From Candidatus Omnitrophota bacterium (lineage in GTDB: Bacteria; Omnitrophota; Gorgyraeia; Zapsychrales; JBDRMG01): a DNA stretch of 64,000 bases. The stretch lies in the NCBI GenBank assembly GCA_043812495.1, contig JBDRMG010000047.1:43771-107770 (forward strand). The letters are read 5' to 3'. Positions 2,083 to 64,000 of the stretch are shown here, piece by piece. The notes below the pieces were generated by a model. That model ran no database searches and was not told the origin of the DNA. It was given only the letters and a program-made list of their open reading frames with translations. Each line of letters starts with the position of its first letter. The stretch's first letter is position 1. Position numbers and translations under genes: made by a program.

Positions 2083-3426
2083 ATGTTACGAACATTATTC
2101 AATCGATCAATAAAAATAACGACACTGTTATTTGCTGCACTTTCTTGCTTGCCTATGACAGCGTATGCTGAAGAGATCGCCTTAGCCAGCCAGGTGGGCG
2201 TGGATACGCTTTGGGTTCTCATGGCTGCTTTTTTGGTGTTTTTTATGCAGGCCGGTTTTGGTATGGTGGAGGCGGGTTTTATCCGCGCCAAAAACACATG
2301 CAATATTTTGACCAAAAACTTTCTGGATTTTTGCATGGCTTCACTCGGGTTTTTTGTCTTTGGATATGCCATTATGTTCGGACCGGGTAACGGGTTTATG
2401 GGATTCAAAGGATGGTTTCTTCACGGGGCCGAATCAGGGGCCAGCGTTCCATTATATGCTTTCTGGCTGTTCCAGGCTGTTTTTTGCGGGACGGCCGCAA
2501 CCATCGTCGCCGGCGGTATGGCTGAGCGGATGAAGTTTCAGGCCTACTTGATTTATTCTTTTCTCATTTCGGCTTTTATTTACCCAATCGTGGGTCATTG
2601 GGTATGGGGCGGAGGATGGCTCTCTAAACTGGGTTTCGCGGATTTTGCCGGCTCAACGGTCGTGCATGCTGTCGGCGGTTTTGCGGCTTTAATCGGAACA
2701 GTGATCTTAAAACCGCGAACGGGAAAATTTAATGCCGATGGATCACCGAATGTCATTGCCGGCCATAATATCCCGCTTGCTTCTTTAGGTGTTTTTATTT
2801 TGTGGTTCGGATGGTTTGGTTTTAATCCCGGATCGACTCTAGGGGTGGGAGACGGAAGCCTGATTGCCCGAGTAGCGATCAATACGAATCTGGCCGCCGC
2901 TTCCGGAGGTATTTTTGCCATGATCACGGTCTGGAAAATGTTTGGCAAACCAGACCTTTCCATGGCCATGAACGGGGCTTTAGCTGGTTTGGTAGCGATC
3001 ACAGCGCCATGCGCCTTTGTTGATCCTTCGGCTGCTATATTCATCGGTGCTGTGGCAGGCGTTATCGTTGTCCTGGGCGTTGTTTTCTTGGATAAGCTTC
3101 ACATTGACGATCCCGTGGGTGCTGTGCCTGTGCATGGATTTAACGGTGTTTGGGGGACGCTCTCCGTTGGTTTATTCGGAAAAGAGAGCTTGGGTCTTGC
3201 CTCAAACGGTCTTTTTTTTGGCGGAGGCCTGAAGCAATTGGGTATCCAGGCTCTGGGCGTTGGCTGCGCAGCCCTTTTTATCGTTATCTGTATGGGGGCT
3301 GTCTTTAAGATCCTTGATGCCACCATAGGTTTGCGCGTGTCCAAAGAAGAGGAATATAAAGGCTTAGATATCGGAGAACGCGGCATGGAATCATATTCCG
3401 GATTCCAGGTGTTTACGACTCAATAA
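2083..3426 (+). CDS. amtB: Ammonium transporter (Amt family)
   Basis: The translation has the typical Amt motifs (GFGMVEAGF, multi-TM, signal peptide after MLRTLF). The likely true start is the ATG at 2083 with RBS agggagaaag, not the ORF-track start at 1987. Confidence 0.9.
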   Translation: MLRTLFNRSIKITTLLFAALSCLPMTAYAEEIALASQVGVDTLWVLMAAFLVFFMQAGFGMVEAGFIRAKNTCNILTKNFLDFCMASLGFFVFGYAIMFGPGNGFMGFKGWFLHGAESGASVPLYAFWLFQAVFCGTAATIVAGGMAERMKFQAYLIYSFLISAFIYPIVGHWVWGGGWLSKLGFADFAGSTVVHAVGGFAALIGTVILKPRTGKFNADGSPNVIAGHNIPLASLGVFILWFGWFGFNPGSTLGVGDGSLIARVAINTNLAAASGGIFAMITVWKMFGKPDLSMAMNGALAGLVAITAPCAFVDPSAAIFIGAVAGVIVVLGVVFLDKLHIDDPVGAVPVHGFNGVWGTLSVGLFGKESLGLASNGLFFGGGLKQLGIQALGVGCAALFIVICMGAVFKILDATIGLRVSKEEEYKGLDIGERGMESYSGFQVFTTQ

Positions 3427-3544
3427 GTGAAGCCCCCCTCTGCCCCGCATTTTGCGGGGCAAGAAGCGGGGTGGCTGAATCTAACTCGTGCGGTAACTTA
3501 CGTCACTTTGTTCCGTAAGTTACGCGCTCGTAAGATGGAGGTGC

Positions 3545-3889
3545 ATGATGAAATTAATTATTGCCATGATCCAACCGCATAAACTGCCCGACGTCAAGGA
3601 AGCCCTCTATAAAGCGGAAGTTTTTAAAATGACCGTCACCAATGTGCTCGGGTGCGGGCAACAGAAAGGTTATAGCGAGACATACCGCGGCGTCGCGCAG
3701 GAAATCAACTTGTTGAAAAAAGTCAGACTTGAAATCGCCGTCAACGAGAACTTCGTCAAACCGACCATTGACGCCATCATCAAAGGCGCCAAGACGGGGA
3801 AAATCGGAGACGGAAAAATATTCGTTCTGGATTTGCCCCGCTGCATCCGCATCCGGACAGGGGAAGAGGGATCGGAAGCGATTGGGTGA
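3545..3889 (+). CDS. glnK: Nitrogen regulatory protein P-II (GlnK-type, amtB-linked)
   Basis: 112 aa GlnB/GlnK-family sequence (…[12 protein letters not shown]… T-loop) immediately downstream of amtB. The start may be the second ATG at 3548. Confidence 0.9.
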
Positions 3890-4170
3890 GTCAACAAGCG
3901 GGATCCTCGCAGGCTTAAAGTTGTTTGAGTTTTAATTGAAAATGTGTTAAAACAATAATGCTTTGAACCAGGAGGTCTTAGGATGCCCAAACTTACGGAT
4001 GGAGCGCTAGCGAAAGAACGTAAGTTTGAGGCCGAACTTAGACCCCGCACCTTTTTTCTCATTCAGATAGTTTTGAATCGCGCGACTCAAAAATATTGAA
4101 TAAGAAAAAGGTGCGGGGTTCAATTCGCCCGCCACTGAATCAATGGCGGGCTCATTGAAGGAGGAGCAAA

Positions 4171-6276
4171 ATGAAAGTTGAGAAAAGCGAAAATAGAAAC
4201 GAATCTATTCCTGATTTTTACGGGGAAAATGTCTTTAGCTTAAAAGTCATGCGCAACTATCTTTCCGAAACAGCGTACAAATCTCTAAGCACAACCATTA
4301 AAACCGGCGGAACCCTTGATCCCGACATTGCCGATGAGGTGGCAGATGCGATGAAAACATGGGCTTTATCCAAGGGGGCTACGCATTTTACGCATTGGTT
4401 TCAGCCGCTCACGGGAACGACGGCAGAGAAACACGATTCCTTTATTTCGCCGGATGAAGAAGGCGGCGTGATCCTGAAGTTTTCCGGCAAAGAACTGATT
4501 CAGGGCGAACCTGATGCCTCTAGTTTCCCGTCGGGCGGCCTAAGGCCGACCTTTGAAGCCCGCGGATATACCGGTTGGGATCCGACAAGCCCGGCATTTA
4601 TCAAGGAAGGCCCGAAAAGAGCCACGCTTTGTATTCCGACGTATTTTATCGGATGGAACGGCGAAGCCCTGGATAAAAAGACACCGTTATTGCGTTCCAT
4701 GAAGGCTCTTTCCAAACAGGTGTGCCGTCTGGGTGAACTCTTTGGCGTCAAATCCAAAGGCAAAATAGCCTACGCGACACTGGGCGGCGAGCAGGAATAT
4801 TTCCTGATCGACAGAAAATATTACAATCAGCGCATTGACCTGATTCAGACAGGCAGGACATTGTATGGCAAAGAACCGGCCAAGCATCAGCAGATGGCTG
4901 ATCATTATTTTGGAGCGATCAAAAGCAGAATCATGGGCTTTATGGAAGACTTAGACTATGAAATGTGGAAGTTGGGTGTGCCCACAAAAACACGCCATAA
5001 TGAGGTGGCTCCGGCCCAGTTTGAAGTGGCTCCTATTTTTGAGAGCTTGAACCTCGCTGTTGACCACAACATGATCTGCATGGAAACAATGAAAAAGGTC
5101 GCCGAAAAGCACGGCCTAGTCTGCCTTTTGCACGAAAAACCGTTTGCCGGCATTAACGGCTCGGGTAAGCACAACAACTGGTCCATCGTCGGTCCGGACG
5201 GAAAAAATTGGCTATCACCCGGCGATAATCCGCACGAAGACGCCAAATTTCTTGTGGTGCTTTGCGCGATTATTAAAGCGGTTGACACGTATGCCGAATT
5301 GCTGCGCGTTTCGATTGCCTCAGCCGGAAATGACCACCGCTTAGGTTCCCACGAAGCGCCGCCGGCGATTATTTCCATTTTCTTAGGCGATCAGTTGACG
5401 GATATTATCGAGCAGATTGAAAAAGGCGAAGCCAAAAGCTCTAAACAAGGCGGTGTGCTTGAAATCGGCGTGGATTCGCTGCCGAAACTGCCGCGTGATG
5501 CCACGGACCGCAACAGAACATCTCCTTTTGCCTTTACGGGATCAAAGTTCGAATTCCGCGCCGTTGGCTCCGACATGAGCTTGGCTGGCCCCAATATCAT
5601 TCTCAATATGATTGTGGCCGAATCCTTGGATGGAATTTGCACAGAACTCGAAGCCGCTGTTAAGGCCAAAAAGGATTTTAATGCGTCCGTTTCGAAAATC
5701 CTTAAAGGCATCATTGCAAAACACAAGAGAGTTATTTTTAATGGGGACAACTACACGGAAGAATGGCTCAAAGAGGCGAAGAAAAGAGGCCTTCCTAACC
5801 TCAAAAATACTCTCGAGGCCTTGGAGGTGCTCAAGAAACCCGAGTACATTCGAGTTTTTGAAAAACACTGCGTTCTCTCTAAAAAAGAACTCATGTCTCG
5901 TTATGGAGTCTACAAAGAGGCTTTTGAGATTACGATTGATTATGAAGCCAAGCTGGCCGCGGATATGGCCAAGACCCTGATCATTCCTGTCGTCGTCAGT
6001 TATCAGAATGAACTGGCCAATACCATCAGATCCGTTGAGGGCATCAATAAGACAAGCTTAAAAGAATCTCGCAAGCTTTTGAAGAGCATCTCCAAAGAAG
6101 CAGAGACAGCCTTAAGCTACATCGAGGACCTTGAAGGAGCGATCAAGAAGAAAGAGCCTCTGAAGACCAAAGAAGCGATGAAAGAACTGCGCGAGACCAT
6201 CGACGCGCTCGAAGGCCTGATTCCGGCCGACAAATGGCCATTGCCGTCATATGCCGAAATGCTCTTTATGCTTTAG
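4171..6276 (+). CDS. glnN: Glutamine synthetase type III
   Basis: About 700 aa with a GSIII-like N-terminus (FYGENVF…HFTHWFQPLTG) and a catalytic core. The size and motifs fit GSIII rather than GSI. Confidence 0.85.
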   Translation: MKVEKSENRNESIPDFYGENVFSLKVMRNYLSETAYKSLSTTIKTGGTLDPDIADEVADAMKTWALSKGATHFTHWFQPLTGTTAEKHDSFISPDEEGGVILKFSGKELIQGEPDASSFPSGGLRPTFEARGYTGWDPTSPAFIKEGPKRATLCIPTYFIGWNGEALDKKTPLLRSMKALSKQVCRLGELFGVKSKGKIAYATLGGEQEYFLIDRKYYNQRIDLIQTGRTLYGKEPAKHQQMADHYFGAIKSRIMGFMEDLDYEMWKLGVPTKTRHNEVAPAQFEVAPIFESLNLAVDHNMICMETMKKVAEKHGLVCLLHEKPFAGINGSGKHNNWSIVGPDGKNWLSPGDNPHEDAKFLVVLCAIIKAVDTYAELLRVSIASAGNDHRLGSHEAPPAIISIFLGDQLTDIIEQIEKGEAKSSKQGGVLEIGVDSLPKLPRDATDRNRTSPFAFTGSKFEFRAVGSDMSLAGPNIILNMIVAESLDGICTELEAAVKAKKDFNASVSKILKGIIAKHKRVIFNGDNYTEEWLKEAKKRGLPNLKNTLEALEVLKKPEYIRVFEKHCVLSKKELMSRYGVYKEAFEITIDYEAKLAADMAKTLIIPVVVSYQNELANTIRSVEGINKTSLKESRKLLKSISKEAETALSYIEDLEGAIKKKEPLKTKEAMKELRETIDALEGLIPADKWPLPSYAEMLFML

Positions 6277-6389
6277 AGACAATGATTCTTTTCCTAAAAC
6301 ACATTACAGCATCAAGGCTTACGCATAAATTTTTTTGTTTTTGAATGCACAATAATTAGGCAAAAACCTTATTCATAAAGGAGCTTTCC

Positions 6390-8081
6390 ATGCTCAGAAT
6401 CGGCTTAGCGCAAATCAATGTCACCGTCGGCGATCTTGAGGGTAATCGCAACAAGATTATCGAATATATCAAGCGGGCCAAGCAATTCAATATCAACATC
6501 GTTGTGTTTCCTGAATTGGCCTTAACGGGTTATCCGCCGGAAGATCTTCTCCTGAAGGACCATTTTATCAAAGATAATTTCAAAGCGCTGAACCGCATCA
6601 TCCAGGAGACAGAAAACACGTTGGCCATTATTGGGTTTGTTGACAGAGACAAAGCCGGGCGCCTGTACAATGCCGCAGCCGTCATTTATCACAAAAAACT
6701 CAAAGGCGTATACCGCAAGATGGAACTTCCTAATTATGGCGTTTTTGACGAAAAAAGATATTTTACGCCCGGCACAGAAAATAAAGTTTTTGCTTTTGGA
6801 GATCATAAACTGGGCATAAGCATTTGCGAAGATATTTGGCACCCCCAGGGCCCTTGCCGACAACAGGTCAAGGCCGGAGCTAATTTATTAATCAATTTGT
6901 CCTCGTCTCCGTATCAAGCGGGAAAAGCAAAAATGCGAGGAAAATTTTTATCTCAGCAAGCCAAAAAGAACAAAGCTTCTGTGGCCTATGTGAATCTCAT
7001 CGGAGGGCAAGACGAGCTGGTCTTTGACGGCGCGAGCCTGATCATTGATCCTAAAGGAAAAATCGTCGCATCCGGAAAATCTTTCGAAGAAGATCTCGTG
7101 ACCGCCGATCTCGCGCTCCCGGTTAAATCAAGGGCTTCAGAAAAAGATCAGCTCAAAATGATATTGATCGAGAAAGATCTGAAGATAAAAGGAAAATTAT
7201 TGATCAAAGGCAAGAGAGCCAAACCGCTAAGCCCAACCGAAGAAATCTACAAGGCCCTTGTCCTGGGTACGCGCGATTATGTCCTCAAAAATGGATTTAA
7301 AAAAGTCGTCTTAGGCTTAAGCGGCGGAATTGATTCTTCGCTCGTGGCAACAATTGCCTGCGATGCCTTGGGTGCGCAAAACGTGATCGGCGTAACCATG
7401 CCATCGCGCTTTACGTCGAGTGAAACGCGCTATGACGCCCTGCGCCTGGCGGATAATCTCAGGATACAAGATCGTGAAGTCCCGATCGACTCCATTTACG
7501 AAGCGTATTTGAAAACGCTCAAAGAGGAATTTCTCGGGCTTGACCCCGATACAACCGAAGAGAACATCCAGGCGCGTATCCGTGGCAATATCCTCATGGC
7601 TTTTTCCAACAAATTCGGCTGGCTTGTGTTGACCACAGGCAACAAAAGCGAAGTGGCCGTCGGTTACTGTACGCTTTACGGCGATATGGCCGGCGGATTT
7701 GCCGTCATTAAAGATATTCCCAAAACGCTTGTTTATCGCCTCGCTCGCTACCGCAATAGTCTTGAAAAGAAAGAATTGATTGCGCCCAGTATCCTCAAGC
7801 GTCCTCCTACGGCGGAATTGCGTAAGAATCAAAAAGATCAGGATTCTCTGCCGCCCTATGATGTCTTAGATAAAATCTTAGAGGCTTATGTCGAAAAAGA
7901 CAAAAGCCTGTCCAAGATCAAAGGGGCGAAAACGAACGAAAAACTTATTTGCAAAGTTACGCGTATGGTTGACCGGATGGAATATAAGCGGCGTCAGTCA
8001 CCGCCGGGTGTGAAAATTACGCCCAGGGCATTCGGCAAAGACAGGCGGCTTCCGATCACCAACAGATATAAGGAATATTGA
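6390..8081 (+). CDS. nadE: Glutamine-dependent NAD+ synthetase (CN-hydrolase glutaminase domain plus NAD synthetase domain)
   Basis: N-terminal nitrilase-like domain (VVFPELALTGYPPEDLL) and C-terminal NAD synthase PP-loop (GLSGGIDSS). Confidence 0.9.
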   Translation: MLRIGLAQINVTVGDLEGNRNKIIEYIKRAKQFNINIVVFPELALTGYPPEDLLLKDHFIKDNFKALNRIIQETENTLAIIGFVDRDKAGRLYNAAAVIYHKKLKGVYRKMELPNYGVFDEKRYFTPGTENKVFAFGDHKLGISICEDIWHPQGPCRQQVKAGANLLINLSSSPYQAGKAKMRGKFLSQQAKKNKASVAYVNLIGGQDELVFDGASLIIDPKGKIVASGKSFEEDLVTADLALPVKSRASEKDQLKMILIEKDLKIKGKLLIKGKRAKPLSPTEEIYKALVLGTRDYVLKNGFKKVVLGLSGGIDSSLVATIACDALGAQNVIGVTMPSRFTSSETRYDALRLADNLRIQDREVPIDSIYEAYLKTLKEEFLGLDPDTTEENIQARIRGNILMAFSNKFGWLVLTTGNKSEVAVGYCTLYGDMAGGFAVIKDIPKTLVYRLARYRNSLEKKELIAPSILKRPPTAELRKNQKDQDSLPPYDVLDKILEAYVEKDKSLSKIKGAKTNEKLICKVTRMVDRMEYKRRQSPPGVKITPRAFGKDRRLPITNRYKEY

Positions 8082-22197: not shown

Positions 22198-22539
22198 ATG
22201 GAGATTATAAAAAACACGCTTAAAATTTCTCAGCTTAAAGAAATGGCGGAACGCTTATTCGGCAATCTGGTGAAAGCCGTTGTGGATACCGAGCAAGAGT
22301 GGCTGGCCGTCGATGGCGAACTTCATTCGGATTTAGAGGCCTTCTTGCTGGAAGGCGGCTCAAAACAAAAAAACCTCTGGGGGATTAATCTTTATGTGGA
22401 CAGGCAAGGTGAAGATTTTATCGAATTTGACTCGGTAATCAATATGCGTCCGTCGCAAAACAATCGAAGCCGTGGCGTGGATAGCCCTGAGATTCGAAAG
22501 CGCATCACGGACATCGTCAACAAAAGGTTAAAGCTGTGA
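22198..22539 (+). CDS. Hypothetical protein (first of a translationally coupled pair)
   Basis: 113 aa ORF. Its stop overlaps a GTG start of the next ORF. Confidence 0.4.
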   Translation: MEIIKNTLKISQLKEMAERLFGNLVKAVVDTEQEWLAVDGELHSDLEAFLLEGGSKQKNLWGINLYVDRQGEDFIEFDSVINMRPSQNNRSRGVDSPEIRKRITDIVNKRLKL

Positions 22540-22868
22540 GCCCGCAACACAAAAATCTTACCCTTGAAAAATGGAACCGGTTGTCTTTTATCGAGCAGAT
22601 GGCCAATATCGGTAGCGAGGTCGAGCGCGCCCTCAACTGGCGGGCCAGGCATCACGCGGCCTATTGTCAATTGGCTTTTGAGCGCGCCCTTGAGCTGTTG
22701 GATTTAACCCTAGAGAGCGTGAAAGGTTTTTCCCGCCTTAAAGAACTTACCCGCCTGCGGGAAGCGATGGCGGATTATTTTTTCGGGACAAACCGATTTC
22801 AGTATAACGAAGCGTCTCTAAAACAATACTTTCTGAACTTTGCCTACGCCGCCCGCCGGAATCGTTGA
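22536..22868 (+). CDS. Hypothetical protein (second of pair; GTG start)
   Basis: 110 aa. Overlaps the upstream stop by 4 bp. Confidence 0.4.
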   Translation: MSPQHKNLTLEKWNRLSFIEQMANIGSEVERALNWRARHHAAYCQLAFERALELLDLTLESVKGFSRLKELTRLREAMADYFFGTNRFQYNEASLKQYFLNFAYAARRNR

Positions 22869-22899: not shown

Positions 22900-23300
22900 C
22901 CAGCCCATCTCCCTCCGGATTTTCTTCCTTGACATAGGGGGGATTTTTGTTAAATTGAGACCGTTGACCCTTACAACGGTCTCATCCTGAACGAAGTCGA
23001 AGGATTTGCGCACATGAGTTACATCTCCCGTTTCGCTTGGTCCGTAACTCATGGGGTTATCCAGGGGTGAAAGTCGTGGAAAAAACACAAAATTGAAAGC
23101 AAATTCCGGCAGCCCGCCATTGATTCATCGGCGGGCTGCCGATTCTATTTAAGCTCAGAAAAGATCGCAGACGTTGCCGGTCAATGATTATAGATTATAG
23201 TGTTTTCTTCTTCGCCCGCCACTAAATCGTTGGCGGGCTCGAAGTAAATTCGCCTCGTCACTTAGGTCATTTCATTCCATGAGTGACGGGCTCATTTAAG
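22900..23300. repeat. Array of heterogeneous hairpins, including a CTTCG-flanked GCCCGCCA REP at 23205-23250
   Basis: gagaccgttg…caacggtctc, catgagttac…gtaactcatg, cgcccgccactaaatcgttggcgggctcgaag and others. Confidence 0.65.
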
Positions 23301-23505
23301 CGGGTTTCGGACAAGGGCAATAATGTTTCGTTTGGATTAAGAGAAAATCGTACAGTAGACGAGTAAAATTTAAAGTTGATGTTTTAGAGGTCTCCTATAT
23401 TCGCTGCAAATAGTTTTCATATAATATAATTTATATAGTATAATAATGTCCATTAAGTTAATTACATCTGATATTTATAAGGGTACAATTTGTTAAAATA
23501 AGGAT

Positions 23506-24231
23506 ATGACTATGTTCCAAGCAAAAAATTTTAAAATTTTCTCATGTCAATGCTCAATATTTACTCCTCTATTAACCTTTTCTCCTAATAAAATCCATAT
23601 TGCTATTGCGGGTAAATATGCAGAAATTCTAAATGGCAATCCTGTTTTGTTACCTCTGCCAGAAGATGCCCCTAAAGAAATTCCAAGAATTATACTTTCT
23701 AGCGGAGATGGTAAATTAAAGTTAGAAATTGCAAATAGCAGAGTTAACTTTTTTCGATTTAGAAAAGAAAGCGATACTGAAATTGATTTTCCTTCTTTTT
23801 TAGAACTGAATTTATCTATTGTTAAAGATTACATAGAGTGCACTTCTGCAAAAATAGGTCGAATAGCATTAGTGATTAGACGTTTTGTGGAGACTGAAGA
23901 CCCGGGAAAAATATTAGCGAAGCATTTTTGTAAAGAGAAATTTTGTATGGAGGATTCCAAATTATCTTGTTTTAATAGACCCGAAAATTTCGAGATACAT
24001 TCACACAAAAAATATCCACTACCAAAAAGTAAAACAATTGTCAATAGTTGGGTAAGATGCAAAAGCGGTCTTTTAAAGAACATAAAACAGCCCATTGTTT
24101 TTGTTGAGCAAGATTTTAATACGTTGGCAGAAGATCAGGATAAATTAGATTATGACGCTGAAAGAATTGCAGCTTTTTACATGGAATCATTCAATGAACA
24201 AGCAGAAATTCTAAAGAAATATTTTCCGTAA
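23506..24231 (+). CDS. Hypothetical protein, gene 1 of a very AT-rich three-gene cassette (no recognisable domain)
   Basis: 241 aa ORF with RBS aagga. GC is far below the flanking DNA. 1 bp gap to the next ORF. Confidence 0.6.
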   Translation: MTMFQAKNFKIFSCQCSIFTPLLTFSPNKIHIAIAGKYAEILNGNPVLLPLPEDAPKEIPRIILSSGDGKLKLEIANSRVNFFRFRKESDTEIDFPSFLELNLSIVKDYIECTSAKIGRIALVIRRFVETEDPGKILAKHFCKEKFCMEDSKLSCFNRPENFEIHSHKKYPLPKSKTIVNSWVRCKSGLLKNIKQPIVFVEQDFNTLAEDQDKLDYDAERIAAFYMESFNEQAEILKKYFP

Positions 24232-24232
24232 A

Positions 24233-24970
24233 ATGGACAAAATACTTCAATTAAAAGATACAGGACAAAATAGATTGCCAACAATTGATTTAGGCGCAGA
24301 GTTAACTGCTACTTCTCTGGAGGGGTATAGCCTTCGCACATTTCCCTACGAAATGGAAAGAGATGTTTTAAATATTGAAAGTCGATCAAACAGAGCCGAA
24401 CCCTATAATATTGTCTTCTTTTATGACTTTTACAATTCGGTGATTACAACGTCAGAACGTGGAGAATTGAATAAATATGCAATTAATGTCGATACTGGTT
24501 TAAAATGGCATGCAGTAGATTTTGGTTATTTTCATGGAAGGACAGCTACAACTAGAACAAAAAATTTAATTGATCCAGTTGAAGTGGAGAAAGCAAGCAA
24601 GGGCCTTCTTACAATAATTCACAGGTTCCGTCAAATTGTCAACTTAAAAGAGGGTTGGGATACATACGCCGCAAAACCAATAAAGCAAGAAACAATCAAC
24701 CGTGCGATAGAATTTTTTTATAAAGTTCTTTTTAAAATTAATTATCGCTCACTTCCGATTCCTTTTGTCGTCCCCCTCGAAGATGGAGGAATATTTTTCG
24801 AGTGGAGAACTTGCTACAAAGAACTCCATCATACAATTCCAGAGGATATTGCAGAGCCGTATACATATTACAAGATTGATAAAACATTATTCGAGAATTT
24901 TGAAGAAGAGAAGGAAACTCGAGATATAGATGAAATTGTTGATTTAATAACAAGCTGGTTGCAAAAGTAA
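24233..24970 (+). CDS. Hypothetical protein, gene 2 of the AT-rich cassette
   Basis: 245 aa ORF, tightly spaced. No recognisable motif. Confidence 0.6.
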   Translation: MDKILQLKDTGQNRLPTIDLGAELTATSLEGYSLRTFPYEMERDVLNIESRSNRAEPYNIVFFYDFYNSVITTSERGELNKYAINVDTGLKWHAVDFGYFHGRTATTRTKNLIDPVEVEKASKGLLTIIHRFRQIVNLKEGWDTYAAKPIKQETINRAIEFFYKVLFKINYRSLPIPFVVPLEDGGIFFEWRTCYKELHHTIPEDIAEPYTYYKIDKTLFENFEEEKETRDIDEIVDLITSWLQK

Positions 24971-25344
24971 TGATTGGAATAATTCCTCCGGAAGATTTTC
25001 TATACAAACGGATTCCTCCTATCCACTGGCATTTTCAGGAAGATAGAGTATCCTCGGGTGCATTTAAAACCAGTAGATTAGTCCTGTCTGTTGATTGGGA
25101 CCAATATTCTACTCCTCAAAAGACCTTAGAGGGGTATCAAGGAAATGGACTAATTAAAATACAAGCAAAGTTCCCGAGGCAAAAAGAGCTAGCCGTTCTC
25201 CATAGACCTATCAAGGATGATCCCGTTGAAAAAGATAATCCCGCCCATAGTCATATTGAAGGTGCAAATCTTAATAAAGAATCAACAGCAAAATATCTCT
25301 TAGAAAATTCCATCCTGCTTGAAAAAGTTAACAAATCTTTGTAG
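24970..25344 (+). CDS. Hypothetical protein, gene 3 of the AT-rich cassette
   Basis: 124 aa ORF. Its ATGA start overlaps the gene 2 stop. No recognisable motif. Confidence 0.55.
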   Translation: MIGIIPPEDFLYKRIPPIHWHFQEDRVSSGAFKTSRLVLSVDWDQYSTPQKTLEGYQGNGLIKIQAKFPRQKELAVLHRPIKDDPVEKDNPAHSHIEGANLNKESTAKYLLENSILLEKVNKSL

Positions 25345-25379
25345 ACGTTGTCCGTAATCATTTAGCATAAAAAAATAAT

Positions 25380-25500
25380 TTAGACCGTTTCTAAATTTAT
25401 TTTTTAGTGGTAACCCCACGCTCCTCTTGTTCATCGGAGCTTTGGGGTAAATTCGCACCTATGGTTTACGTTCCGTAAACCATGTGCTCATTTATGAATA
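25380..25500. repeat. Hairpin repeats abutting the 5' end of the YhcG-N/SNase gene
   Basis: gtggtaacccc / ggggtaa and aattcgcacctatggtttacgttccgtaaaccatgtgctcat hairpins. Confidence 0.6.
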
Positions 25501-25633
25501 AACCTCTAACAAATCCAACACCTATCCCACCCTCGTCAAGAACATCCAATCCGAACTCTCAAACCTTGAATTCTTCATCAAGCGCCAGACGGCGGAATCC
25601 TACTGGAAAGTCGGGAAATTCATTCATGAGCAT

Positions 25634-26479
25634 TTGCTCGAGAATAAAAAGCGGGCGGGATATGGAGAAAGCCTTTACGAACGGCTGTCGAAGGACGTTG
25701 GCAAGGACGCAAGCACGTTAAGCAAAACCGTCCGATTTTACCGCACCTACCCAATTTTGGACCGCGGTCCAAAATTGTCCTGGACCCATTATCGGAAATT
25801 GATCACCGTCAAAGACCAAAAAGAGCGAAAGAAACTTGAGGCGCAGATTGTTCAGAAGAATTGGGACGGCCAAAAACTTCAGAATTATCTAAATACCAAA
25901 CGTGAGCTGGAAACCGGCAAAGACGACCGCAAACCTATTGCGCAACTCAAATTGACCCGCGGCCGGCCGGATGTTTTTGAGGTCATCAAAAGCGACGACG
26001 CCGGGGCTGATTCAGAACTTATTTTGGATTATGGGTTTCGGGTCACGTGCGCGTTGCCACCGGCCGTTGGTTTTAAGCCCAAAGAAGGGGATTTCGTCCA
26101 GCTCAACCGTGACAGCAAACGTCCGACAATCACAAAGGCAGACGTTAAGAAAGACGAAATCTATACCTACGAAGCCAGGGTGAAAAAGGTCATTGACGGC
26201 GATACTCTTTTGGTAAAAATTGATATTGATTTTGGAATCAGCATCAGGCAAAAACTTCGCCTGCGCGGAATCGATTGCCCGGAAATGGACACCGACGAAG
26301 GTAAGGCCGCCAAAAAATTTGTCGAGGACCGCCTCAAGGGTCTTGACTTTATCATCATCAAAACATTTAAGGATTCGACGGATAAATATGACAGATATTT
26401 GGCTGATGTGTTTTATGGCGAAGAGCAGGAATTTTTGAACCAGGAATTATTAAATGAACGGTTGGCAATGGTGTATTGA
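25634..26479 (+). CDS. YhcG/DUF1016-type N-terminal domain fused to a staphylococcal-nuclease-like (SNase) domain
   Basis: The N-region has YGESLYERLS…TVRFYRTYP…LSWTHYRKLITV. The C-region is SNase-like (GDTLLVKIDIDFG…LRLRGIDCPE…DRYLADVF). In-frame similarity extends upstream to about 25502 with no ATG, so the start is uncertain or the 5' end is disrupted by the hairpin element. Confidence 0.6.
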   Translation: MLENKKRAGYGESLYERLSKDVGKDASTLSKTVRFYRTYPILDRGPKLSWTHYRKLITVKDQKERKKLEAQIVQKNWDGQKLQNYLNTKRELETGKDDRKPIAQLKLTRGRPDVFEVIKSDDAGADSELILDYGFRVTCALPPAVGFKPKEGDFVQLNRDSKRPTITKADVKKDEIYTYEARVKKVIDGDTLLVKIDIDFGISIRQKLRLRGIDCPEMDTDEGKAAKKFVEDRLKGLDFIIIKTFKDSTDKYDRYLADVFYGEEQEFLNQELLNERLAMVY

Positions 26480-26489
26480 TTCTGCTTCG

Positions 26490-26935
26490 CTGCAATGTTC
26501 TCATGTTGCAGCTTCGCAGAATGGATCACTTAGGAATTGTGAAAAGACAGACCACGGGTTTACCCGTGGTGGGTTGCCAAAGGTTTTTCGTGAGCGAAGC
26601 TCACGTAATATACATGGAACCACGGGTTTGCCCGTGGGGATCCATTTGCAGAATATATTGGATTGTTTTCTTCTTCGCCCGCCACTAAATCGTTGGCGGG
26701 CTCGAAGTAAATTAGGTCAGTGACTTATGTTCCTCTAAATGACGTCGCAACTTATGGAGCGAAGCGAACATAAGTTGCTTGACGGAATTTACTCCGTACC
26801 TTTGAGATATGTTGAATTATTTGCTAAAGGTGCGGAACTAATTCGTACAGTCACTTATGTTCATTCACTTTGTTCACTCCATAAGTGACGCACCCATGAG
26901 CCGTCCATAAGTCACGACCTCATTTAAATCAGGAG
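26490..26935. repeat. Hairpin-repeat array (REP plus heterogeneous hairpins)
   Basis: Includes tgcttcgctgcaatgttctcatgttgcagcttcgca, ccacgggtttacccgtgg twice, a CTTCG-flanked REP and cacttatg…cataagtg units. Confidence 0.65.
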
Positions 26936-27088: not shown

Positions 27089-27322
27089 ATGATTAAGCTC
27101 AGCAAACGATCGACCATCTATTTTGACCCGCAAGTGCATAAAATTCTTAAATATAAAGCTATCGAAAGCTCACGTTCCGTCTCAGAGATTGTCCATGATG
27201 CGATCTTGCACGAATTAGCCGAAGACAAAGAGGATTTGGAAGCCTTTTCCAAACGCGCCCATGAGCCGACCGTATCTTTTGAAGCCTTGTTAAAAGAGCT
27301 GAAATTAGATGGCAAAATATAA
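27089..27322 (+). CDS. Ribbon-helix-helix (CopG/ParD-like) antitoxin
   Basis: 77 aa RHH-like N-terminus (TIYFDPQVHKILKYKA…SVSEIVHDAI). Overlaps the downstream toxin gene. Confidence 0.7.
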   Translation: MIKLSKRSTIYFDPQVHKILKYKAIESSRSVSEIVHDAILHELAEDKEDLEAFSKRAHEPTVSFEALLKELKLDGKI

Positions 27323-27569
27323 GATTGAGATTAAAAAAAGCGCTGTTAAAGAAGTCAAACAGCTTCCCGCCAAGGATATTAAGAAAATCCTGAAGAAAAT
27401 TATGGACCTCGGAGATGATCCCCACCCGCCGGACAGCAAGAAATTATCCGGTCATGATCGATATCGCCTTCGCTACCGGCATTATCGAATTCTTTATGAA
27501 ATTGTCGAAGATATTCTCATTATTTATGTTGTTAGAATCGGACATCGAAAAGATATTTACAGGAAGTAA
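27309..27569 (+). CDS. RelE/ParE-family toxin
   Basis: 86 aa with the RelE/ParE C-terminal signature (YRLRY…RILYEIVED…IYVVRIGHRKDIY). Overlaps the antitoxin by 14 bp. Confidence 0.75.
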   Translation: MAKYKIEIKKSAVKEVKQLPAKDIKKILKKIMDLGDDPHPPDSKKLSGHDRYRLRYRHYRILYEIVEDILIIYVVRIGHRKDIYRK

Positions 27570-33335: not shown

Positions 33336-33528
33336 CAATGAGACCATGATTTATGGAGCAAAGCGCCCGCCAATTTTTTAAATTTTTAGCGAGGTCTCGC
33401 CAATTCGATAAAATCGAATTGACGGAACATAAGTCATAAGGTCGAATTGACCCAGCCCGCCATTGATTCAGTGGCGGGCTGGGATAAAAAAAATACAAAT
33501 ATAATATTTCATCTAATAGGACAATGAT

Positions 33529-35046
33529 ATGAAAAAAATCGGTTTTGATAATGAAAAATATTTGAAAGAGCAGGCGCAAGCCATTTTGGAGAGGGTCAAG
33601 CAGTTTGACAATAAACTCTATCTGGAGTTCGGCGGTAAGCTTTTGTTTGATTATCATGCGGCTCGTGTTTTGCCGGGATTTGACCCCAATGTCAAGATGC
33701 GGTTGTTGAAGCAGCTCAAAAATGATGCGGATATTATTTTATGTATTTATGCGGGGGATATCGAACGAAAGAAAGTCCGTGCCGATTTTGGAATTACCTA
33801 TGATGCGGATGCCTTGAAATTGATCGATGATTTAAGAGACTGGGGCATTGATGTCTGCGCGGTTGTGATTACGCGCTTTGAGAATCAACCCGCCGCGACC
33901 ATTTTCAAAAATAAATTACAACGCCAGGGCACCAAGGTCTATACGCATCCGTTTACAAAAGGATATCCGACGGATGTCGATCTGATTGTCAGCGAGCAGG
34001 GTTACGGCGCCAACGAATACATCAAAACAAAACACGGCTTGGTCATTGTGACAGGCCCCGGGCCGGGAAGCGGAAAACTCGCGACTTGCCTGTCCCAGAT
34101 TTACCATGAATATCAAAAAGGCGTCAAAGCCGGTTATGCAAAATTCGAAACATTTCCCATCTGGAACTTGCCTTTAAAACATCCGGTGAATGTCGCTTAT
34201 GAATGCGCCACGGCCGATATTAAAGATTTCAACATGATCGATTCGTTCCACTTGGAAGCTTATCATCAAACAACGGTCAACTATAACCGGGACGTCGAAG
34301 TCTTTCCGGTCTTAAAAAGAATTCTAACTAAAATCATGGGCGAGGATGCGGTTTATAAATCTCCGACGGATATGGGGGTTAATCGGGCCGGTTTTGGCAT
34401 CATTGATGATGAGGCTATTCGCGAAGCATCCAAACAGGAAGCGATCAGGCGATATTTTAAATACGGCTGCGAATATTCCATGGGTTTGGTGGATAAGGAA
34501 ACCGTTGAACGCGCAGAATTATTGATGAAGGAAATGGGCGTTGCTATCGAAAACCGAACAGTTGTAAAGCCTGCGCGAGAGGCCGCCGAACAAGCTCGAG
34601 AAAAAGGAAAAGGAAACGAAGGCATTTTCTGCGGAGCCGCCATAGAGTTGCGTGACGGAAAGATTATCACGGGGAAGAATTCGCCTCTGATGCACGCGGC
34701 CTCCAGTCTCATCCTCAATGCCCTCAAGGACCTGGCCGAAATTCCGGACAAAATCCATCTATTGTCGGAAAATATTATCGGGTCCATATCCAACCTTAAG
34801 AAAGATGTGCTCAAGGCCAAAACATTGAGTTTAGACTTAGACGAAGCCTTGATCAGCCTCAGCATCAGCGCGGCCACCAATTCCACCTCTCAGTTAGCGA
34901 TAGAAAAATTAAAGGAATTGCAGGGATGCGAGGTTCACATTACGCATGTTCCGACGCCGGGTGATGAAGCAGGCTTAAGGCGACTCGGCGTGAATCTGAC
35001 CTGTGATACCAATTTTACGTCCAAAAGTTTTTTTGAAATCTCCTAA
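33529..35046 (+). CDS. DUF1846 / UPF0371-family protein
   Basis: 505 aa. The N-terminus [15 protein letters not shown]… and size are typical of UPF0371 proteins. Confidence 0.6.
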
Positions 35047-35269
35047 TCGACAACTGTAATGAAATATTATAATTGTATTTGCTTAATCCCCAGCCCGCCA
35101 CTGAATCAATAGCGGGCGGTGTCAATTCGGCCTTATGACTTATGTCGTCCGCCACAGAAACAATGGCGGACTCCATAAATCATGGCCTCATCGATAAGCG
35201 AAAGAGGAAGATATGCCAAGACGCAATGATATTCACAAAGTGCTTATAATCGGATCGGGACCCATTATT
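35011..35269 (+). repeat. Direct repeat copy 1 (about 258 bp): DUF1846 3' end, intergenic REPs and the first 19 codons of carB
   Basis: Near-identical to 37494-37751. It carries one extra T near its left end and synonymous differences in the carB codons. Confidence 0.85.
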
Positions 35270-35275
35270 CAGAAG
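35213..35275 (+). pseudogene. carB 5' fragment (MPRRNDIHKVLIIGSGPIIQK, then stop) left at the left junction of the insert
   Basis: Identical peptide to the carB1 N-terminus at 37695, but the nucleotides differ synonymously. It terminates at the repeat boundary. Confidence 0.7.
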
Positions 35276-35771
35276 TAAGTTATATAAATCCTGGAGAAAC
35301 GGTGAAATTTCCGGTTGTGAATCCCTTTAATTATGAAAAGTTTAAAAATGAAACAGCCACTATAGTATGTACTTTAGGAGCGTTGTTTAATAGAGTGACA
35401 ATAGTTTTGAAACCCCTGCCAGAAGTGCAAAACACCTCTACAAACGAAAAGTAAATTTATAGTATTCCCCTATGATCGGAAAATTGATCATGGCCGTTTT
35501 TCTACCTGTATACAGAGAGTCTTTCCGTTGCTCCGTATTTCTGGGCGTCCTGAGCGGAGACACCTCTCAAATTTTATAAGAGCTGTATACAAAGATGGAG
35601 TCACTCATCGAATATTTCTGCCCGTTCTGATCAAACATGCCCGTTTAATCAAGAGGATTTTTTAACATAGAAATAGCCTTTTTTAAAATTGTCACAGAGA
35701 GATGGGATAGAACTTCTTATAAAATTAAGATTTAATAGGTTTGGCATGATATTATTTGTTGTATATGTTAA

Positions 35772-36062
35772 GTGAGGAAATCATTTAGTAAAATGATTTT
35801 GGTTGTTTTATTATTTTTCAGCTTTTCTCTACAAGCTTTTGCTTCACCGAAGGATAGTCAGGAATATCTTGAACGCCAAACAATTTTTAATAATGTAACA
35901 GATTTTTTTGCTACTATTGGTGAATCAAAAGAAAAGAGAATAGTAATCAAAAGAGCAAAATGGCTAGCAAGACGAAAAGCACGTCTAAAGAAAGCCAGAG
36001 AGGAACAAAGAAAAAGTGAGATAGATGTTTTATCAATCAGTAGTATAATAAATTGGATTTAA
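35772..36062 (+). CDS. Small secreted protein with a Lys/Arg-rich C-terminal region
   Basis: Signal peptide (MILVVLLFFSFSLQAFA). 96 aa. Confidence 0.4.
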   Translation: MRKSFSKMILVVLLFFSFSLQAFASPKDSQEYLERQTIFNNVTDFFATIGESKEKRIVIKRAKWLARRKARLKKAREEQRKSEIDVLSISSIINWI

Positions 36063-36104
36063 AGGATGTCGTTTTATCTCTTGAAAACCTAACAGTATAG
36101 ACAT

Positions 36105-37268
36105 ATGGAAGAATTCATTTTTGATTTAAGTGTTGTTCTCGTTGGTGCAGCTATTTTATCCTTCTTGGCTGTTATCTTAAAGCAACCAATAATAATTGCT
36201 TATATCGTATGCGGAGTATTGGTTGGTCCTTGGGGAATCGGTTTGATTAAACATGCCGAATTTATAGAGATGATTGCACATCTTGGAATAACATTGCTTC
36301 TTTTTCTGGCAGGGCTTTGTTTGCATCCTCAAAAACTCGTCATGTTATTTAAAAAAACCACACTTGTTACTCTCGGCAACTGTTTAGCCTCGTTTCTTAT
36401 AGCCTTTCTTTTTGCTCTCATATTCCGTTTTGGAATTATGGATAGCCTCTGCATAGGTCTTGCGTTAATGTTTTCGAGTACTATATTAACTGTCAAGTTA
36501 CTTCCCACAACGAAGTTGCACCAGCAGAGAATGGGTGCTGTTTGCATAGGTATTTTGATTATGCAGGATTTATTGGCTATATCTGTGCTTGCGTTTATTC
36601 GGTGTTTAGATGCACCTCAAGGGGTCATGATTAACTTTGGTTTACTGATTATTAAGCTTTGTGTATTTATCGGAATTTTAGTTTTATTTGAACAATTTGT
36701 ACTAAGAAAAATTATGCATAAGGTCGAACGTTTTCATGAAGCGTTATTTATATTGGGATTGGCATGGTGTTTTGGGATAGCAAGCATTTCAAACCACATG
36801 GGACTTTTTTATGAAACAGGGGCCTTTTTTGCTGGCGTCGTATTAGCTAGGCACCGAATTTCGCTATTTATATCTGAAAGCTTGAAACCGCTGAGAGATT
36901 TTTTCTTAGTACTGTTTTTCTTTACTTTGGGAGCAAGGCTCGATTTTCTGGTGATGAAAGGTATCTTGATTCCAGCGGTACTCTTAGCGACGGTATTTTT
37001 AGTTATTAAACCATGGCTATTTAAAAAGTTCTTTATATTAACTGGCGAACAGACTGCTTTTGCCAAGGAAGCTGGAATACGGCTAGGGCAATTGAGTGAA
37101 TTTTCTTTATTAGTTGCGCTTTTAGCATTTGAATTAGGCCATATAAGTAGCGGTGCATCTCAACTCATTCAACTCGTCACCATTCTTACCTTTATAGCTT
37201 CAAGCTATATTGTGGTCTTCAAATATCCTACTCCAATTGGGGCAACAGAGAATTTGATTAAGGATTGA
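36105..37268 (+). CDS. Cation/proton antiporter (CPA family, Na+/H+ exchanger-like)
   Basis: Polytopic membrane protein with a GVLVGPWGIGLI-type motif and the TM topology of Na_H exchanger-family proteins. Confidence 0.65.
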   Translation: MEEFIFDLSVVLVGAAILSFLAVILKQPIIIAYIVCGVLVGPWGIGLIKHAEFIEMIAHLGITLLLFLAGLCLHPQKLVMLFKKTTLVTLGNCLASFLIAFLFALIFRFGIMDSLCIGLALMFSSTILTVKLLPTTKLHQQRMGAVCIGILIMQDLLAISVLAFIRCLDAPQGVMINFGLLIIKLCVFIGILVLFEQFVLRKIMHKVERFHEALFILGLAWCFGIASISNHMGLFYETGAFFAGVVLARHRISLFISESLKPLRDFFLVLFFFTLGARLDFLVMKGILIPAVLLATVFLVIKPWLFKKFFILTGEQTAFAKEAGIRLGQLSEFSLLVALLAFELGHISSGASQLIQLVTILTFIASSYIVVFKYPTPIGATENLIKD

Positions 37269-37493
37269 TTCTTTTCGTCAATGTCCACATATTATAGAAT
37301 GGACAACTTTAATTGATTATATATCAAACAGTTATAGTATTTTTATATAGAAAGATATGGACAAATAGGACAAAAATTACGAGGGAATTGCCTCTTTGAA
37401 AACCAAAAGTTCTTGCCATTAAGAGTAATTGTCAATATAATAACCCTACTGTAGGGTGAGAGGTTTCCCCTCATGAAATCTGAGAGGGACCCT

Positions 37494-37751
37494 AATTTTA
37501 CGTCCAAAAGTTTTTTGAAATCTCCTAATCGACAACTGTAATGAAATATTATAATTGTATTTGCTTAATCCCCAGCCCGCCACTGAATCAATAGCGGGCG
37601 GTGTCAATTCGGCTTTATGACTTATGTCGTCCGCCACAGAAACAATGGCGGACTCCATAAATCATGGCCTCATCGATAAGCGAAAGAGGAAGATATGCCA
37701 AGACGCAATGATATTCACAAAGTTCTCATTATCGGATCAGGCCCCATTATT
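37494..37751 (+). repeat. Direct repeat copy 2 (about 258 bp), providing the intact carB1 start
   Basis: See copy 1. Confidence 0.85.
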
Positions 37752-58967: not shown

Positions 58968-59486
58968 TTAAAGGTTAAAGAAACAATACCCGTTCCAATG
59001 CGCGCCGGTAATTTCTTTGGCAATGGCCGAGAGATGTTTATAGATTTTTCCGTTATGCTCAAAGCCGTCTTCCAAAACCTTAACCTCTATTTTCTTGCCC
59101 TTATATTCCTTCATGATGATGCTTCCCGGAATAGGGAGGCGGTTGTCCCGCGTGCGCCCTTTTGTTTTCCCGTCAGCTTCAGGGCTTGGCTTTAGCCTTA
59201 AGGCTTTATTATTAACAGGGTCGTAGGCTTTTATAAATTCATTAAGCCTTGTTTGCGCATTTTCTGATAAACTGCCGTATTCAAGCTCTTGAAGGCGGTA
59301 GGCAAGCCTTCGTATCAAAAAGACCTTATTATCTGAAGTGGCTTTCTGGCCGTCAAAAAGCGCCCTATACTCTTTCTGGAGATCAGGAACCGCCATATTT
59401 TCAAAGGCTTTTATTCTTTCTTCAATTATCTCTGTCATCGGATTTTCCCTTACGCATATAGGGCCATACAATTCGAGAGATAGCAA
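58968..59486 (-). CDS. Recombinase-associated small protein (DUF2924-like)
   Basis: About 155-172 aa ORF immediately downstream of, and co-oriented with, the serine recombinase. It resembles proteins usually found next to such recombinases. The start is possibly MTEIIEE at 59438. Confidence 0.45.
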   Translation of the reverse strand: MLSLELYGPICVRENPMTEIIEERIKAFENMAVPDLQKEYRALFDGQKATSDNKVFLIRRLAYRLQELEYGSLSENAQTRLNEFIKAYDPVNNKALRLKPSPEADGKTKGRTRDNRLPIPGSIIMKEYKGKKIEVKVLEDGFEHNGKIYKHLSAIAKEITGAHWNGYCFFNL

Positions 59487-59542
59487 GGGATATTTGAAGC
59501 TTTTGAAGTAAGAATAAAATAATTGACAAGGTGTATGTCTAG

Positions 59543-60184: not shown

Positions 60185-60265
60185 AAAATAATTTTAACCA
60201 GATTTCAATGTGTAGCATCCCTTTTCAATTTCCCCTCTGCACATTGGTAATGAGAGGAGAAAGAT

Positions 60266-63752: not shown

Positions 63753-63755
63753 GCA

Positions 63756-64000
63756 TGAGCAAGCAGGAAGAAAAATTATATCCGGATATCGAAGAATGGT
63801 TAAAAGTATATTTAACTGAGAAATATTCGACCAATAAAATTATTACGACTCGCAAGACTTCTAGGCAGAATTTAGATGTTTGCCTTAAGAGCCTTGGAAT
63901 CGAGATCAAAGAAGCCATTGGATTATCGATTAAGGTTGACATCGTTGGTATCCTTGTGCGAGGGCAAAAAGTCAGATTGGTTTTTGTTGAGGTAAAAGAT
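63756..64000 (+). CDS. Partial CDS (runs off the window) with a PD-(D/E)xK-like nuclease motif; candidate restriction endonuclease
   Basis: The translation MSKQEEKLYPDIEEW…KVDIVGILVRGQKVRLVFVEVKD contains D…EVK spacing typical of PD-(D/E)xK. Not in the ORF track because it is truncated. Confidence 0.4.

Follow-up and report, generated by a model that had tools for sequence, protein, structure and literature searches.

A three-gene cassette in Candidatus Omnitrophota is probably a new three-part toxin-antitoxin or phage-defence system

Toxin-antitoxin-chaperone (TAC) systems combine a constant SecB-like chaperone with interchangeable toxin-antitoxin (TA) pairs, among them CmdTAC, which has an ADP-ribosyltransferase (ART) toxin (PMC11618068, PMC8832971). 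In CmdTAC, a phage capsid protein titrates the SecB-like chaperone away, and the freed ART toxin causes abortive infection (PMC11618068). Other three-gene TA loci with a conserved extra gene have been documented, namely paaR-paaA-parE and omega-epsilon-zeta (PMC8832971). Here we describe a cassette of three genes, called A, B, and C, in a metagenome-assembled genome of Candidatus Omnitrophota; the cassette lies within a stretch of 64,000 nucleotides (nt) of contig JBDRMG010000047.1, which we refer to as the window. An earlier reading of these letters (the original prediction) had picked out the cassette as a candidate conflict module. As judged from comparative sequence analysis, it is probably a new three-part TA or phage-defence system. 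We estimate a probability of roughly 60% that it represents a widespread, unnamed three-gene TA-type module in which C would be the toxin, B a bipartite neutraliser and adaptor, and A a constant accessory hub.

The cassette (locus tags ABIJ41_06460/65/70, on a contig of 108 kb) consists of gene A (23506-24231, plus strand, 241 amino acids (aa); the NCBI call is 239 aa, from the second ATG at 23512), gene B (24233-24970, plus strand, 245 aa), and gene C (24970-25344, plus strand, 124 aa), in exact agreement with the three open reading frames (ORFs) first described. A and B are separated by 1 nt (TAA-a-ATG), as had been stated, and this spacing indicates translational coupling. The junction between B and C had been read as an ATGA overlap; it is in fact TAATG, in which the last A of the B stop codon is the first base of the C start codon, an overlap of 1 nt. 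With gaps of 1 nt and -1 nt and a low GC content common to all three genes, the proposal of a single operon holds, and so does that of an unusual composition: the GC content is 0.344 in the cassette versus 0.445 in the window, only 0.6% of stretches of that length reach such a low value, and the cassette contains the GC minimum of the entire 64 kb.

To place the trio in a wider context, we scanned an A-family profile against one genome per species (~186,000 species genomes) and against JGI metagenomes, and took the loci from 50 species genomes together with 80 metagenome loci out of at least 200 metagenome matches. Genes in these comparative loci were called simply as longest ORFs. This yielded 137 A-family ORFs in ~130 loci from more than ten phyla, with representatives in Omnitrophota, Planctomycetota, Cyanobacteria, Desulfobacterota, Acidobacteriota, Chloroflexota, Gemmatimonadota, Clostridia, Oligoflexia, among others. 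In loci with room downstream, A is nearly always followed by a closely packed pair of co-directional genes. The trio does co-occur as a unit, since the order of A, slot 2 (the position of B), and slot 3 (the position of C) is kept in nearly all of the ~130 loci. Among complete genes, 86/121 in the first position after A belong to the B family and 76/109 in the second position belong to the C family. We found no fourth conserved gene, and the flanking genes vary between loci.

What fills slots 2 and 3 varies as well. On a tree of A proteins from 93 non-redundant trios, the B+C (ART) type accounts for 62; the rest are found nested in several parts of the tree, and slots 2 and 3 nearly always switch together. 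In these other types, slot 3 holds Fic/Doc (8 loci, motif HPYANGNGHxAR), PIN (E values of 6.6e-10 and 3.5e-8), HEPN (E value of 9e-4, with an Rx6H motif), a GNAT acetyltransferase (above the Pfam cutoff), DUF7689 (E value of 5e-43), or one of several unknown families. Fic/Doc, PIN, HEPN, and GNAT are classic TA toxins, and their presence in the slot of C speaks for the conflict module that had been suggested. Because these toxin domains replace one another in slot 3, together with slot 2, we read the comparative sequences to mean that slot 3 is a position for interchangeable TA-type toxin domains, that slot 2 is the cognate partner, and that A is the constant component. The slot-2 proteins of different toxin types share no common domain with B or with one another by hhalign, which fits the expectation for cognate antitoxins. 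The module also has the arrangement of a type II TA system, with the antitoxin gene before a translationally coupled toxin gene (B and C overlap by 1 nt, and related loci have the antitoxin and toxin genes arranged likewise), and it carries a recognised toxin fold, ART in C and Fic/Doc, PIN, HEPN, or GNAT in slot 3 elsewhere.

The exchange does not respect the boundaries of gene 2. Two loci with different slot-3 proteins, L025 (PIN type) and L036 (a 175-aa type), are 91% identical in DNA sequence over a stretch that starts upstream of A and extends ~400 nt into gene 2, and they have no similarity beyond that point, which places a recombination junction inside gene 2. The slot-2 protein of L010 (HEPN type) shares its N-terminal part with the ART-type B proteins of neighbouring A clades (E value of ~1e-8) and its C-terminal part with L014, another HEPN partner from a distant A clade (E value of 4e-9). 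Taken together, the L025/L036 breakpoint and the L010 sharing lead us to conclude, from sequence comparison, that gene 2 goes with A in its N-terminal half and with the toxin in its C-terminal half. Divergence rates are consistent with such a bipartite gene 2: at 45-55% identity in A, identity is 22.5% for the N-terminal part of B, 37% for its C-terminal domain, and 38% for C.

These patterns bear on whether A belongs to the functional unit at all. The unit could be B+C alone, a divergent pair of the PDC-M32 type, with A as an unrelated neighbour or a hitch-hiking enzyme. PADLOC models do cover a B-like plus C-like pair, no A-family member matches PADLOC, L100 and L115 have an A gene without a TA-like pair, and distant plasmid A-like genes have a different single partner. 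However, A precedes a tightly coupled pair in almost all of the ~130 loci, across many phyla and neighbourhoods; A is retained when the pair is swapped for Fic, PIN, HEPN, or GNAT types; and the breakpoint lies within gene 2 rather than at the border between A and gene 2, while A and B are only 1 nt apart. We consider a B+C-only unit improbable.

Several individual loci are worth describing in their own right. In the related loci L100 (A at 5965-6720) and L115 (A at 4029-4784), the first gene of any size past A lies beyond a gap of ~210 nt and encodes a YkuD L,D-transpeptidase with both LysM and SPOR domains; A here stands alone or is a remnant. L022, a Planctomycetota contig, has a complete trio (A, a 268-aa protein, and a 175-aa protein) at 79-2163 and, directly downstream at 2484-4021, an apparently degraded second copy in which the A frame is split into two ORFs and precedes genes for a slot-2 protein of 181 aa and a PIN-cluster fragment of 77 aa, so that two module types stand in tandem. 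In L029, from the cultured cyanobacterium Iningainema tapete, B and C are intact and A is split (6001-6498 and 6541-6705), reflecting either a frameshifted pseudogene or a sequencing error; homologues also come from cultured Tolypothrix (L042). On the contig of the closest B relative (L001), a Hypoth_Ymh (PF09509) protein is encoded two genes past the trio, at 2236-2976. Finally, distant A-like genes (~26% identity) occur with a different partner on enterobacterial plasmids of 3-4 kb: the Rahnella plasmid pHW42 (L134, NC_019203.1, 2876-4065, minus strand) and a 3-kb plasmid of E. coli (L135, NZ_CP041118.1, 41-718, minus strand). On pHW42, a gene starting 2 nt after the A-like gene encodes a 163-aa protein with a hydrophobic C-terminal segment. 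This arrangement suggests that one branch of the A family forms two-gene units, possibly with a membrane effector.

The original prediction had also stated that none of the three proteins could be placed in a known family, and this is true in part. A, B, and C have no match in Pfam or NCBIfam, and their family profiles found nothing significant among PDB sequences; PADLOC (for B and C), PHROGs (for A), and fold comparison do place them. In line with the suspected defence module, B and C match, as distant relatives, the PADLOC candidate pair PDC-M32A/B.

B divides into an N-terminal half (residues 1-125, 24233-24607, plus strand), which evolves fast, tracks the A lineage between loci, and has no conserved columns in the family alignment, and a conserved C-terminal domain (residues ~126-245, 24608-24970, plus strand), the predicted toxin-specific neutralising module. 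This domain of ~110 residues carries the motifs W-D-[ST]-Y-[GA]-A, P-F-V-x-P, and G-G-I-x-x-E-W, which also appear in the forms NWDSYGA, PFVAP, and GGIxxEW. Its residues 130-243 match three PDC-M32A profiles (best E value of 1.9e-10, profile positions 263-370 of 375), and 31/50 B-family members match PDC-M32A; matches of B are restricted to profile positions ~256-370, leaving the N-terminal two thirds of the profile unmatched. C matches PDC-M32B weakly (E value of 2e-3, over 100 of 123 positions), and 14/46 members of its family match at E ≤ 1e-3 (best 2.4e-9). At the family level, these profile matches indicate that B and C are distant relatives of PDC-M32A/B. The C-terminal domain of B also matches phrog_30544 (E value of 1e-4); Pfam scans of B-family members returned scattered chance matches only, and tblastn with the conserved domain found no match in plasmids or in phages. 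We considered whether PDC-M32A might be a fusion of A with the B domain and found no support for this, as A matches neither PADLOC nor phrog_30544.

A tryptophan motif, roughly G-x-x-x-W-[TIV]-x-P-x-W, occurs near the junction of the N-terminal and C-terminal parts in slot-2 proteins of the ART, HEPN, and Fic types. It lies at residues ~105-125 of slot 2 in L010 and is absent from B of the window; its statistical support is weak (hhalign E value of 0.04), and A might recognise it as a short linear motif.

A word-indexed protein search found 0 relatives of C, and an exhaustive search of representatives found 91, whose alignment gave a model with a predicted local distance difference test (pLDDT) score of 96.5. 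According to this model, C is a minimal fold of the ART superfamily in which the ART core fold, a split beta-sheet, is present. Conserved residues are R13/R14 (beta1), S40 (beta2, invariant), R70, H78, P80, N90, H93 (beta5, invariant), and G98. An ART triad, H-Y-[EDQ] or R-S-E, is spread over beta1, beta2, and beta5; in C, R13/R14 and S40 fit R-S. The resulting pattern is R-S-[H] as opposed to the canonical R-S-E, with no conserved Glu at beta5; the triad positions were set by the order of secondary-structure elements rather than by residue-level superposition. The model thus supports ART membership of C at the fold level, and its chemistry may be unusual. No homology of the cassette to housekeeping or structural proteins appeared; C instead has a toxin-type ART fold. 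Tblastn of C against plasmids gave no match. Two long proteins with apparent C-like segments (P0163 and P0177) proved to contain low-complexity repeats and are not informative fusions.

An ART-like fold is also found in RNA repair. Tpt1/KptA consists of an RNA lobe and an NAD+ lobe and has an Arg-His-Arg-Arg catalytic tetrad. C might accordingly be a Tpt1/KptA-like, NAD+-dependent RNA 2'-phosphotransferase or another RNA-end enzyme outside any conflict system, with A as a TBP-like RNA-binding partner, and TBP-like domains do bind RNA substrates in RnlA and RNase HIII. Yet C comprises the ART lobe only (124 aa) and resembles Tpt1/KptA at the fold level alone: Pfam scans of C and 54 family members found no Tpt1 match (PTS_2-RNA), returning otherwise scattered chance matches. 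Sister loci with Fic/Doc, PIN, HEPN, or GNAT in the slot of C, the sporadic distribution, the low GC content, and the varying neighbourhoods likewise argue against a role in RNA repair, which we regard as highly improbable. We also considered a secreted polymorphic toxin with its immunity protein and rejected it, as there are no PAAR, Rhs, type VI secretion system, or type VII secretion system-type domains or neighbours and the toxins are small and free-standing.

For A, the word-indexed protein search found 91 relatives, and the protein matches phrog_24110, a family with function unknown (E value of 1.2e-11); in PADLOC, 0/42 A-family members match anything. AlphaFold, run with the alignment of these relatives, gave a model with a pLDDT of 94.5 and a predicted template modelling score of 0.91, in which two beta-alpha-beta-beta-beta-alpha repeats form a pseudo-dimer like that of the TATA-binding protein (TBP). 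Comparison with a viral structure library returned only TFIID/VETF-type, generic TBP-like matches. On the strength of this model, A is a TBP-like pseudo-dimer without a close solved relative. In the family alignment, R119, C142, E163, N180, W182, D203, and N205 are invariant, and H165, K168, R184, and Q202 are nearly so. Most of these residues map to three strands of the second repeat, and their clustering suggests a conserved surface on the sheet for binding or catalysis.

Such a surface could serve transcription. As a nucleic-acid-binding autoregulator of an ordinary B+C TA pair, comparable to omega or PaaR, A would need no sensing or chaperone role, and its position as first gene corresponds to the order of regulator-antitoxin-toxin loci (PMC8832971). 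A TBP-like fold is used for binding DNA by TBP itself, and for binding RNA or RNA-DNA hybrids by RNase HIII and RnlA; no DNA-binding domain was detected in B. However, the 200 nt upstream of 99 A genes contain no conserved operator, only AT-rich promoter-like words, even though the A surface is nearly invariant; the invariant acidic residues E163 and D203 would be unusual on a DNA-binding face; and A and the 5' half of gene 2 segregate together, which points to a relationship between A and B at the protein level, beyond that of a promoter. We therefore find an autoregulator unlikely. The same residues may also be read as an active site: A could be an enzyme with a phosphorylated nucleotide as substrate or signal, one that regulates B or C covalently, in the manner of type VII-like TA systems or of McsB-like marking. 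The conserved arginines R61, R79, R119, R158, and R184 and the invariant E163, D203, and C142 lie on or near the sheet, in a pattern that recalls nucleotide-triphosphate-binding sheets. No kinase or ligase family matches A at the sequence level in Pfam, NCBIfam, or PDB sequences, and a single enzyme would face chemically very different toxin and antitoxin partners, which makes a covalent regulator a rather improbable explanation.

Returning to the module with C as toxin, B as bipartite neutraliser, and A as accessory hub, we propose a mechanism that is plausible but unproven, with the toxicity of C, its neutralisation by B, any contact of A with B, the trigger, the biochemical role of A, and the anti-phage role as the parts we infer. 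C would act as a small ART-fold toxin, and NAD+-dependent modification or depletion of a cellular target is presumably its most likely activity. The C-terminal domain of B would bind and inhibit C, and the N-terminal half of B would be the part that is bound or acted on by A. A, as the accessory hub, would control the state of B and decide whether B stays functional, either by stabilising B or by sensing a trigger such as a ligand, a nucleic acid, or a phage product. Once A is lost or engaged, the toxin would be freed and the cell arrested, as in abortive infection or addiction. As A is not SecB-like, as its modelled sheet is polar and Arg-rich, and as TBP-like domains bind nucleic acids, we consider A no less likely to sense nucleic acid or a nucleotide-like ligand than to act as a chaperone.

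More tentatively, and with odds somewhat below even, A may define a new class of constant hub, a free-standing TBP-like pseudo-dimer with a sheet that binds a ligand or nucleic acid. By acting on the N-terminal module of a bipartite antitoxin, it would govern an entire family of three-part abortive-infection or TA systems. It would then be an independent second solution to the job that the SecB-like chaperone performs within TAC systems, with ART-like, Fic/Doc, PIN, HEPN, GNAT, DUF7689, and unknown toxins on one sensing platform. On that reading, and just as tentatively, C would represent a new clade of ART proteins whose R-S-H chemistry is non-canonical.

The cassette had further been proposed to be horizontally acquired and to sit among defence genes. 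Its low GC content, the different neighbourhoods of its closest relatives, and its patchy scatter over many phyla indicate horizontal transfer. In related loci, integrase, restriction-modification (R-M), and Abi genes do adjoin the module, in a minority of cases: the 148 neighbouring proteins include 5 phage-type integrases, 3 type I R-M methylases, 2 Eco57I-type methylases, 2 AbiEii toxins, and ABC-3C components, together with many housekeeping genes. This is a modest mobile-element and defence-island signal, of the kind typical of TA modules.

A number of points weigh against a TA-type defence module with A as its hub. All comparative loci were retrieved through A. The A protein is not SecB-like, in contrast to the chaperone of TAC systems, and the analogy to TAC is therefore functional only, not homologous; moreover, its conserved sheet surface is polar, charged, and Arg-rich, whereas a typical chaperone groove is hydrophobic. 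Pfam found no DNA-binding domain (HTH, RHH, AbrB, or Phd/YefM) in B or in 57 B-family members, and B in this differs from most type II antitoxins. A had no match among phage GenBank records by tblastn, and its profile found no relatives in IMG/VR. Most neighbours of the module are ordinary genes, and this, with the lack of phage relatives, leaves the association with defence islands a modest one. Finally, the SOS and defence neighbourhood in the window is suggestive only as a pointer to function.

That neighbourhood is as had been reported. A YhcG-like nuclease fusion (DUF1016_N plus SNase, 25634-26479) lies downstream of the cassette, an RHH plus RelE/ParE pair occupies 27089-27569, and DinD (E value of 4e-122) is followed by LexA (E value of 1.7e-60). 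The nuclease fusion, with DUF1016_N (YhcG-like), OB, and staphylococcal-nuclease domains, appears to be 5'-truncated (25442-26479): no stop codon interrupts its frame upstream as far as ~25502, and this part reads as DUF1016-like (…FIKRQTAESYWKVGKFIHEHLLENKKRAGYGE…), no ATG, GTG, or TTG precedes the TTG at 25634, and the Pfam match begins at profile position 37. An SNase domain takes the place of the usual PD-(D/E)xK C-terminal domain of YhcG, and the N-terminal part matches PDC-S02 of PADLOC. Just 5' of the cassette, a DUF5674 protein (113 aa, E value of 8e-35) has a 4-nt overlap with a 110-aa ORF without a family match (22198-22868), forming another small two-gene unit. Elsewhere in the window, stretches of low GC content (<0.37) at ~34900-37700 and ~59400-63800 may be other horizontally acquired islands.

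The regions flanking the three genes contain few candidate signals. An AT-rich region upstream of A (23416-23489, plus strand) has two sigma-70-like matches in a consensus scan, TTCATA-17-TATAAT at 23416-23444 and ATTACA-17-TACAAT at 23461-23489 (both plus strand), and an AAGGA ribosome-binding site directly precedes the A start codon. Since the 13 promoter-like sites found in the region are not above chance (10.8 expected), we grade the sites upstream of A as a plausible promoter and no higher. Directly 3' of C there is only an AT-rich imperfect inverted repeat (I6, 25362-25413), which begins 18 nt past the C stop codon and has 20-nt arms that are 80% complementary. The terminator scan reported no canonical intrinsic terminator after C, and this palindrome is a possible weak transcription stop. 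An Rfam search of 22-28.2 kb found no RNA family.

The cassette had been described as bounded on both sides by hairpin repeats. The repeats exist, and they do not bracket the cassette alone, as the span also takes in the downstream nuclease gene. Two copies of a 78-nt direct repeat, 86% identical overall, lie at 23190-23267 on the left and at 26653-26730, beyond the nuclease gene, on the right; they share a 46-nt exact core with the hairpin GCCCGCC-N11-GGCGGGC, and neither is part of the module. This GC-rich hairpin occurs in the window at 4127-4151, 23111-23136, 23214-23238, 26677-26701, and 33455-33479, and hairpin and short repeat unit recur near 3.4-4.1 kb and 33.5 kb. The hairpins and short units are a dispersed intergenic repeat family. 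We had considered the 78-nt repeats as att-like ends of an inserted element and ruled this out because the hairpin family is found elsewhere in the window. The hairpins and the short units accompanying them (TCCATAAGTGACG) are REP/MITE-like (resembling repetitive extragenic palindromes or miniature inverted-repeat transposable elements), with a further stretch at 3420-3524. A second hairpin type (CCACGGGTTTACCCGTGG) has two copies, 68 nt apart, downstream of the nuclease gene (26551-26570 and 26619-26637).

In our analysis, the novelty would lie in a tripartite module of the TA or abortive-infection type whose hub protein and small ART-like toxin family are both new. If this holds, it would be a three-component conflict system with a wide distribution, mainly among environmental phyla that have been little studied (50/~186,000 species genomes and at least 200 metagenome loci), and its constant component would be without a counterpart among known defence or TA systems. 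It would also be the second case, besides SecB-type TAC, of one accessory protein presiding over many interchangeable TA pairs. The breakpoint inside gene 2 would amount to a natural experiment on accessory-facing and toxin-facing antitoxin modules, C would offer a minimal ART-like domain of 124 residues with unusual conserved residues, and the PADLOC candidate PDC-M32 would gain a broader context.

Compared with described systems, the module is nearest in sequence to PDC-M32, a two-gene, computationally proposed PADLOC candidate (A of ~375 aa and B of ~123 aa) that has the same order of a larger and then a small gene as B and C. PDC-M32B aligns with the whole length of C; for PDC-M32A, ~110/375 profile positions are matched and the N-terminal half of B is unmatched. 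Unlike the two-gene candidate, the module adds a more conserved first gene, A, for which PADLOC has no model. We found PDC-M32 named in one paper, as a mere PADLOC listing, and found no experimental work on it. Beyond PDC-M32, PADLOC returned no match for A, B, or C, including none to PD-T4-9/CmdTAC.

Like C, the ART-fold toxins DarT, RES/MbcT, Tse2, TreTu/TreX, and Tne2, as well as Tpt1/KptA, have an adjacent cognate partner gene. C belongs to none of these families at the sequence level; it is unusually small, lacks the conserved catalytic Glu, and has an invariant S40 and H93. Its partner is also of a different type than the DarG macrodomain, the Xre protein of RES systems, or known immunity proteins: the locus has neither a macro nor an Xre partner and neither a DarT nor a RES domain.

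As for A, the literature we searched contains no description of a similar constant partner. Panacea/PanA resembles A in that one conserved component is found with many unrelated toxin domains; PanA is an antitoxin that directly neutralises toxins, whereas A is a separate gene and the predicted toxin-specific module is in gene 2, where it is exchanged along with the toxin. In contrast to regulators of the paaR or omega type, A has no HTH or RHH domain in Pfam and no conserved operator was found. RnlA/LsoA, of which RnlA is a TA toxin related to defence, and RNase HIII share with A the TBP-like alpha/beta fold class, which they use to bind nucleic acids. Their sequences show no similarity to A, and in RnlA and RNase HIII the TBP-like domain is fused to a nuclease, whereas A is a free-standing double repeat.

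The module has most in common with TAC and CmdTAC (PD-T4-9), which also comprise three genes, with a constant accessory protein and interchangeable TA pairs. CmdTAC has an ART toxin and a bipartite antitoxin with a neutralising part and a part addressed by the accessory protein, to which the ART-like C and the bipartite gene 2 of the module may correspond. The gene order differs, being accessory-antitoxin-toxin in the module and toxin-antitoxin-chaperone in TAC, as do the conserved residues, R-S-H in C versus H-Y-[EDQ] in CmdT. The ChAD element of TAC antitoxins is C-terminal, whereas the accessory-linked part of the antitoxin would be N-terminal in the module. Functionally, TAC systems, in which a dedicated segment lets the chaperone stabilise the antitoxins of several unrelated TA pairs, are the nearest analogue of the module.

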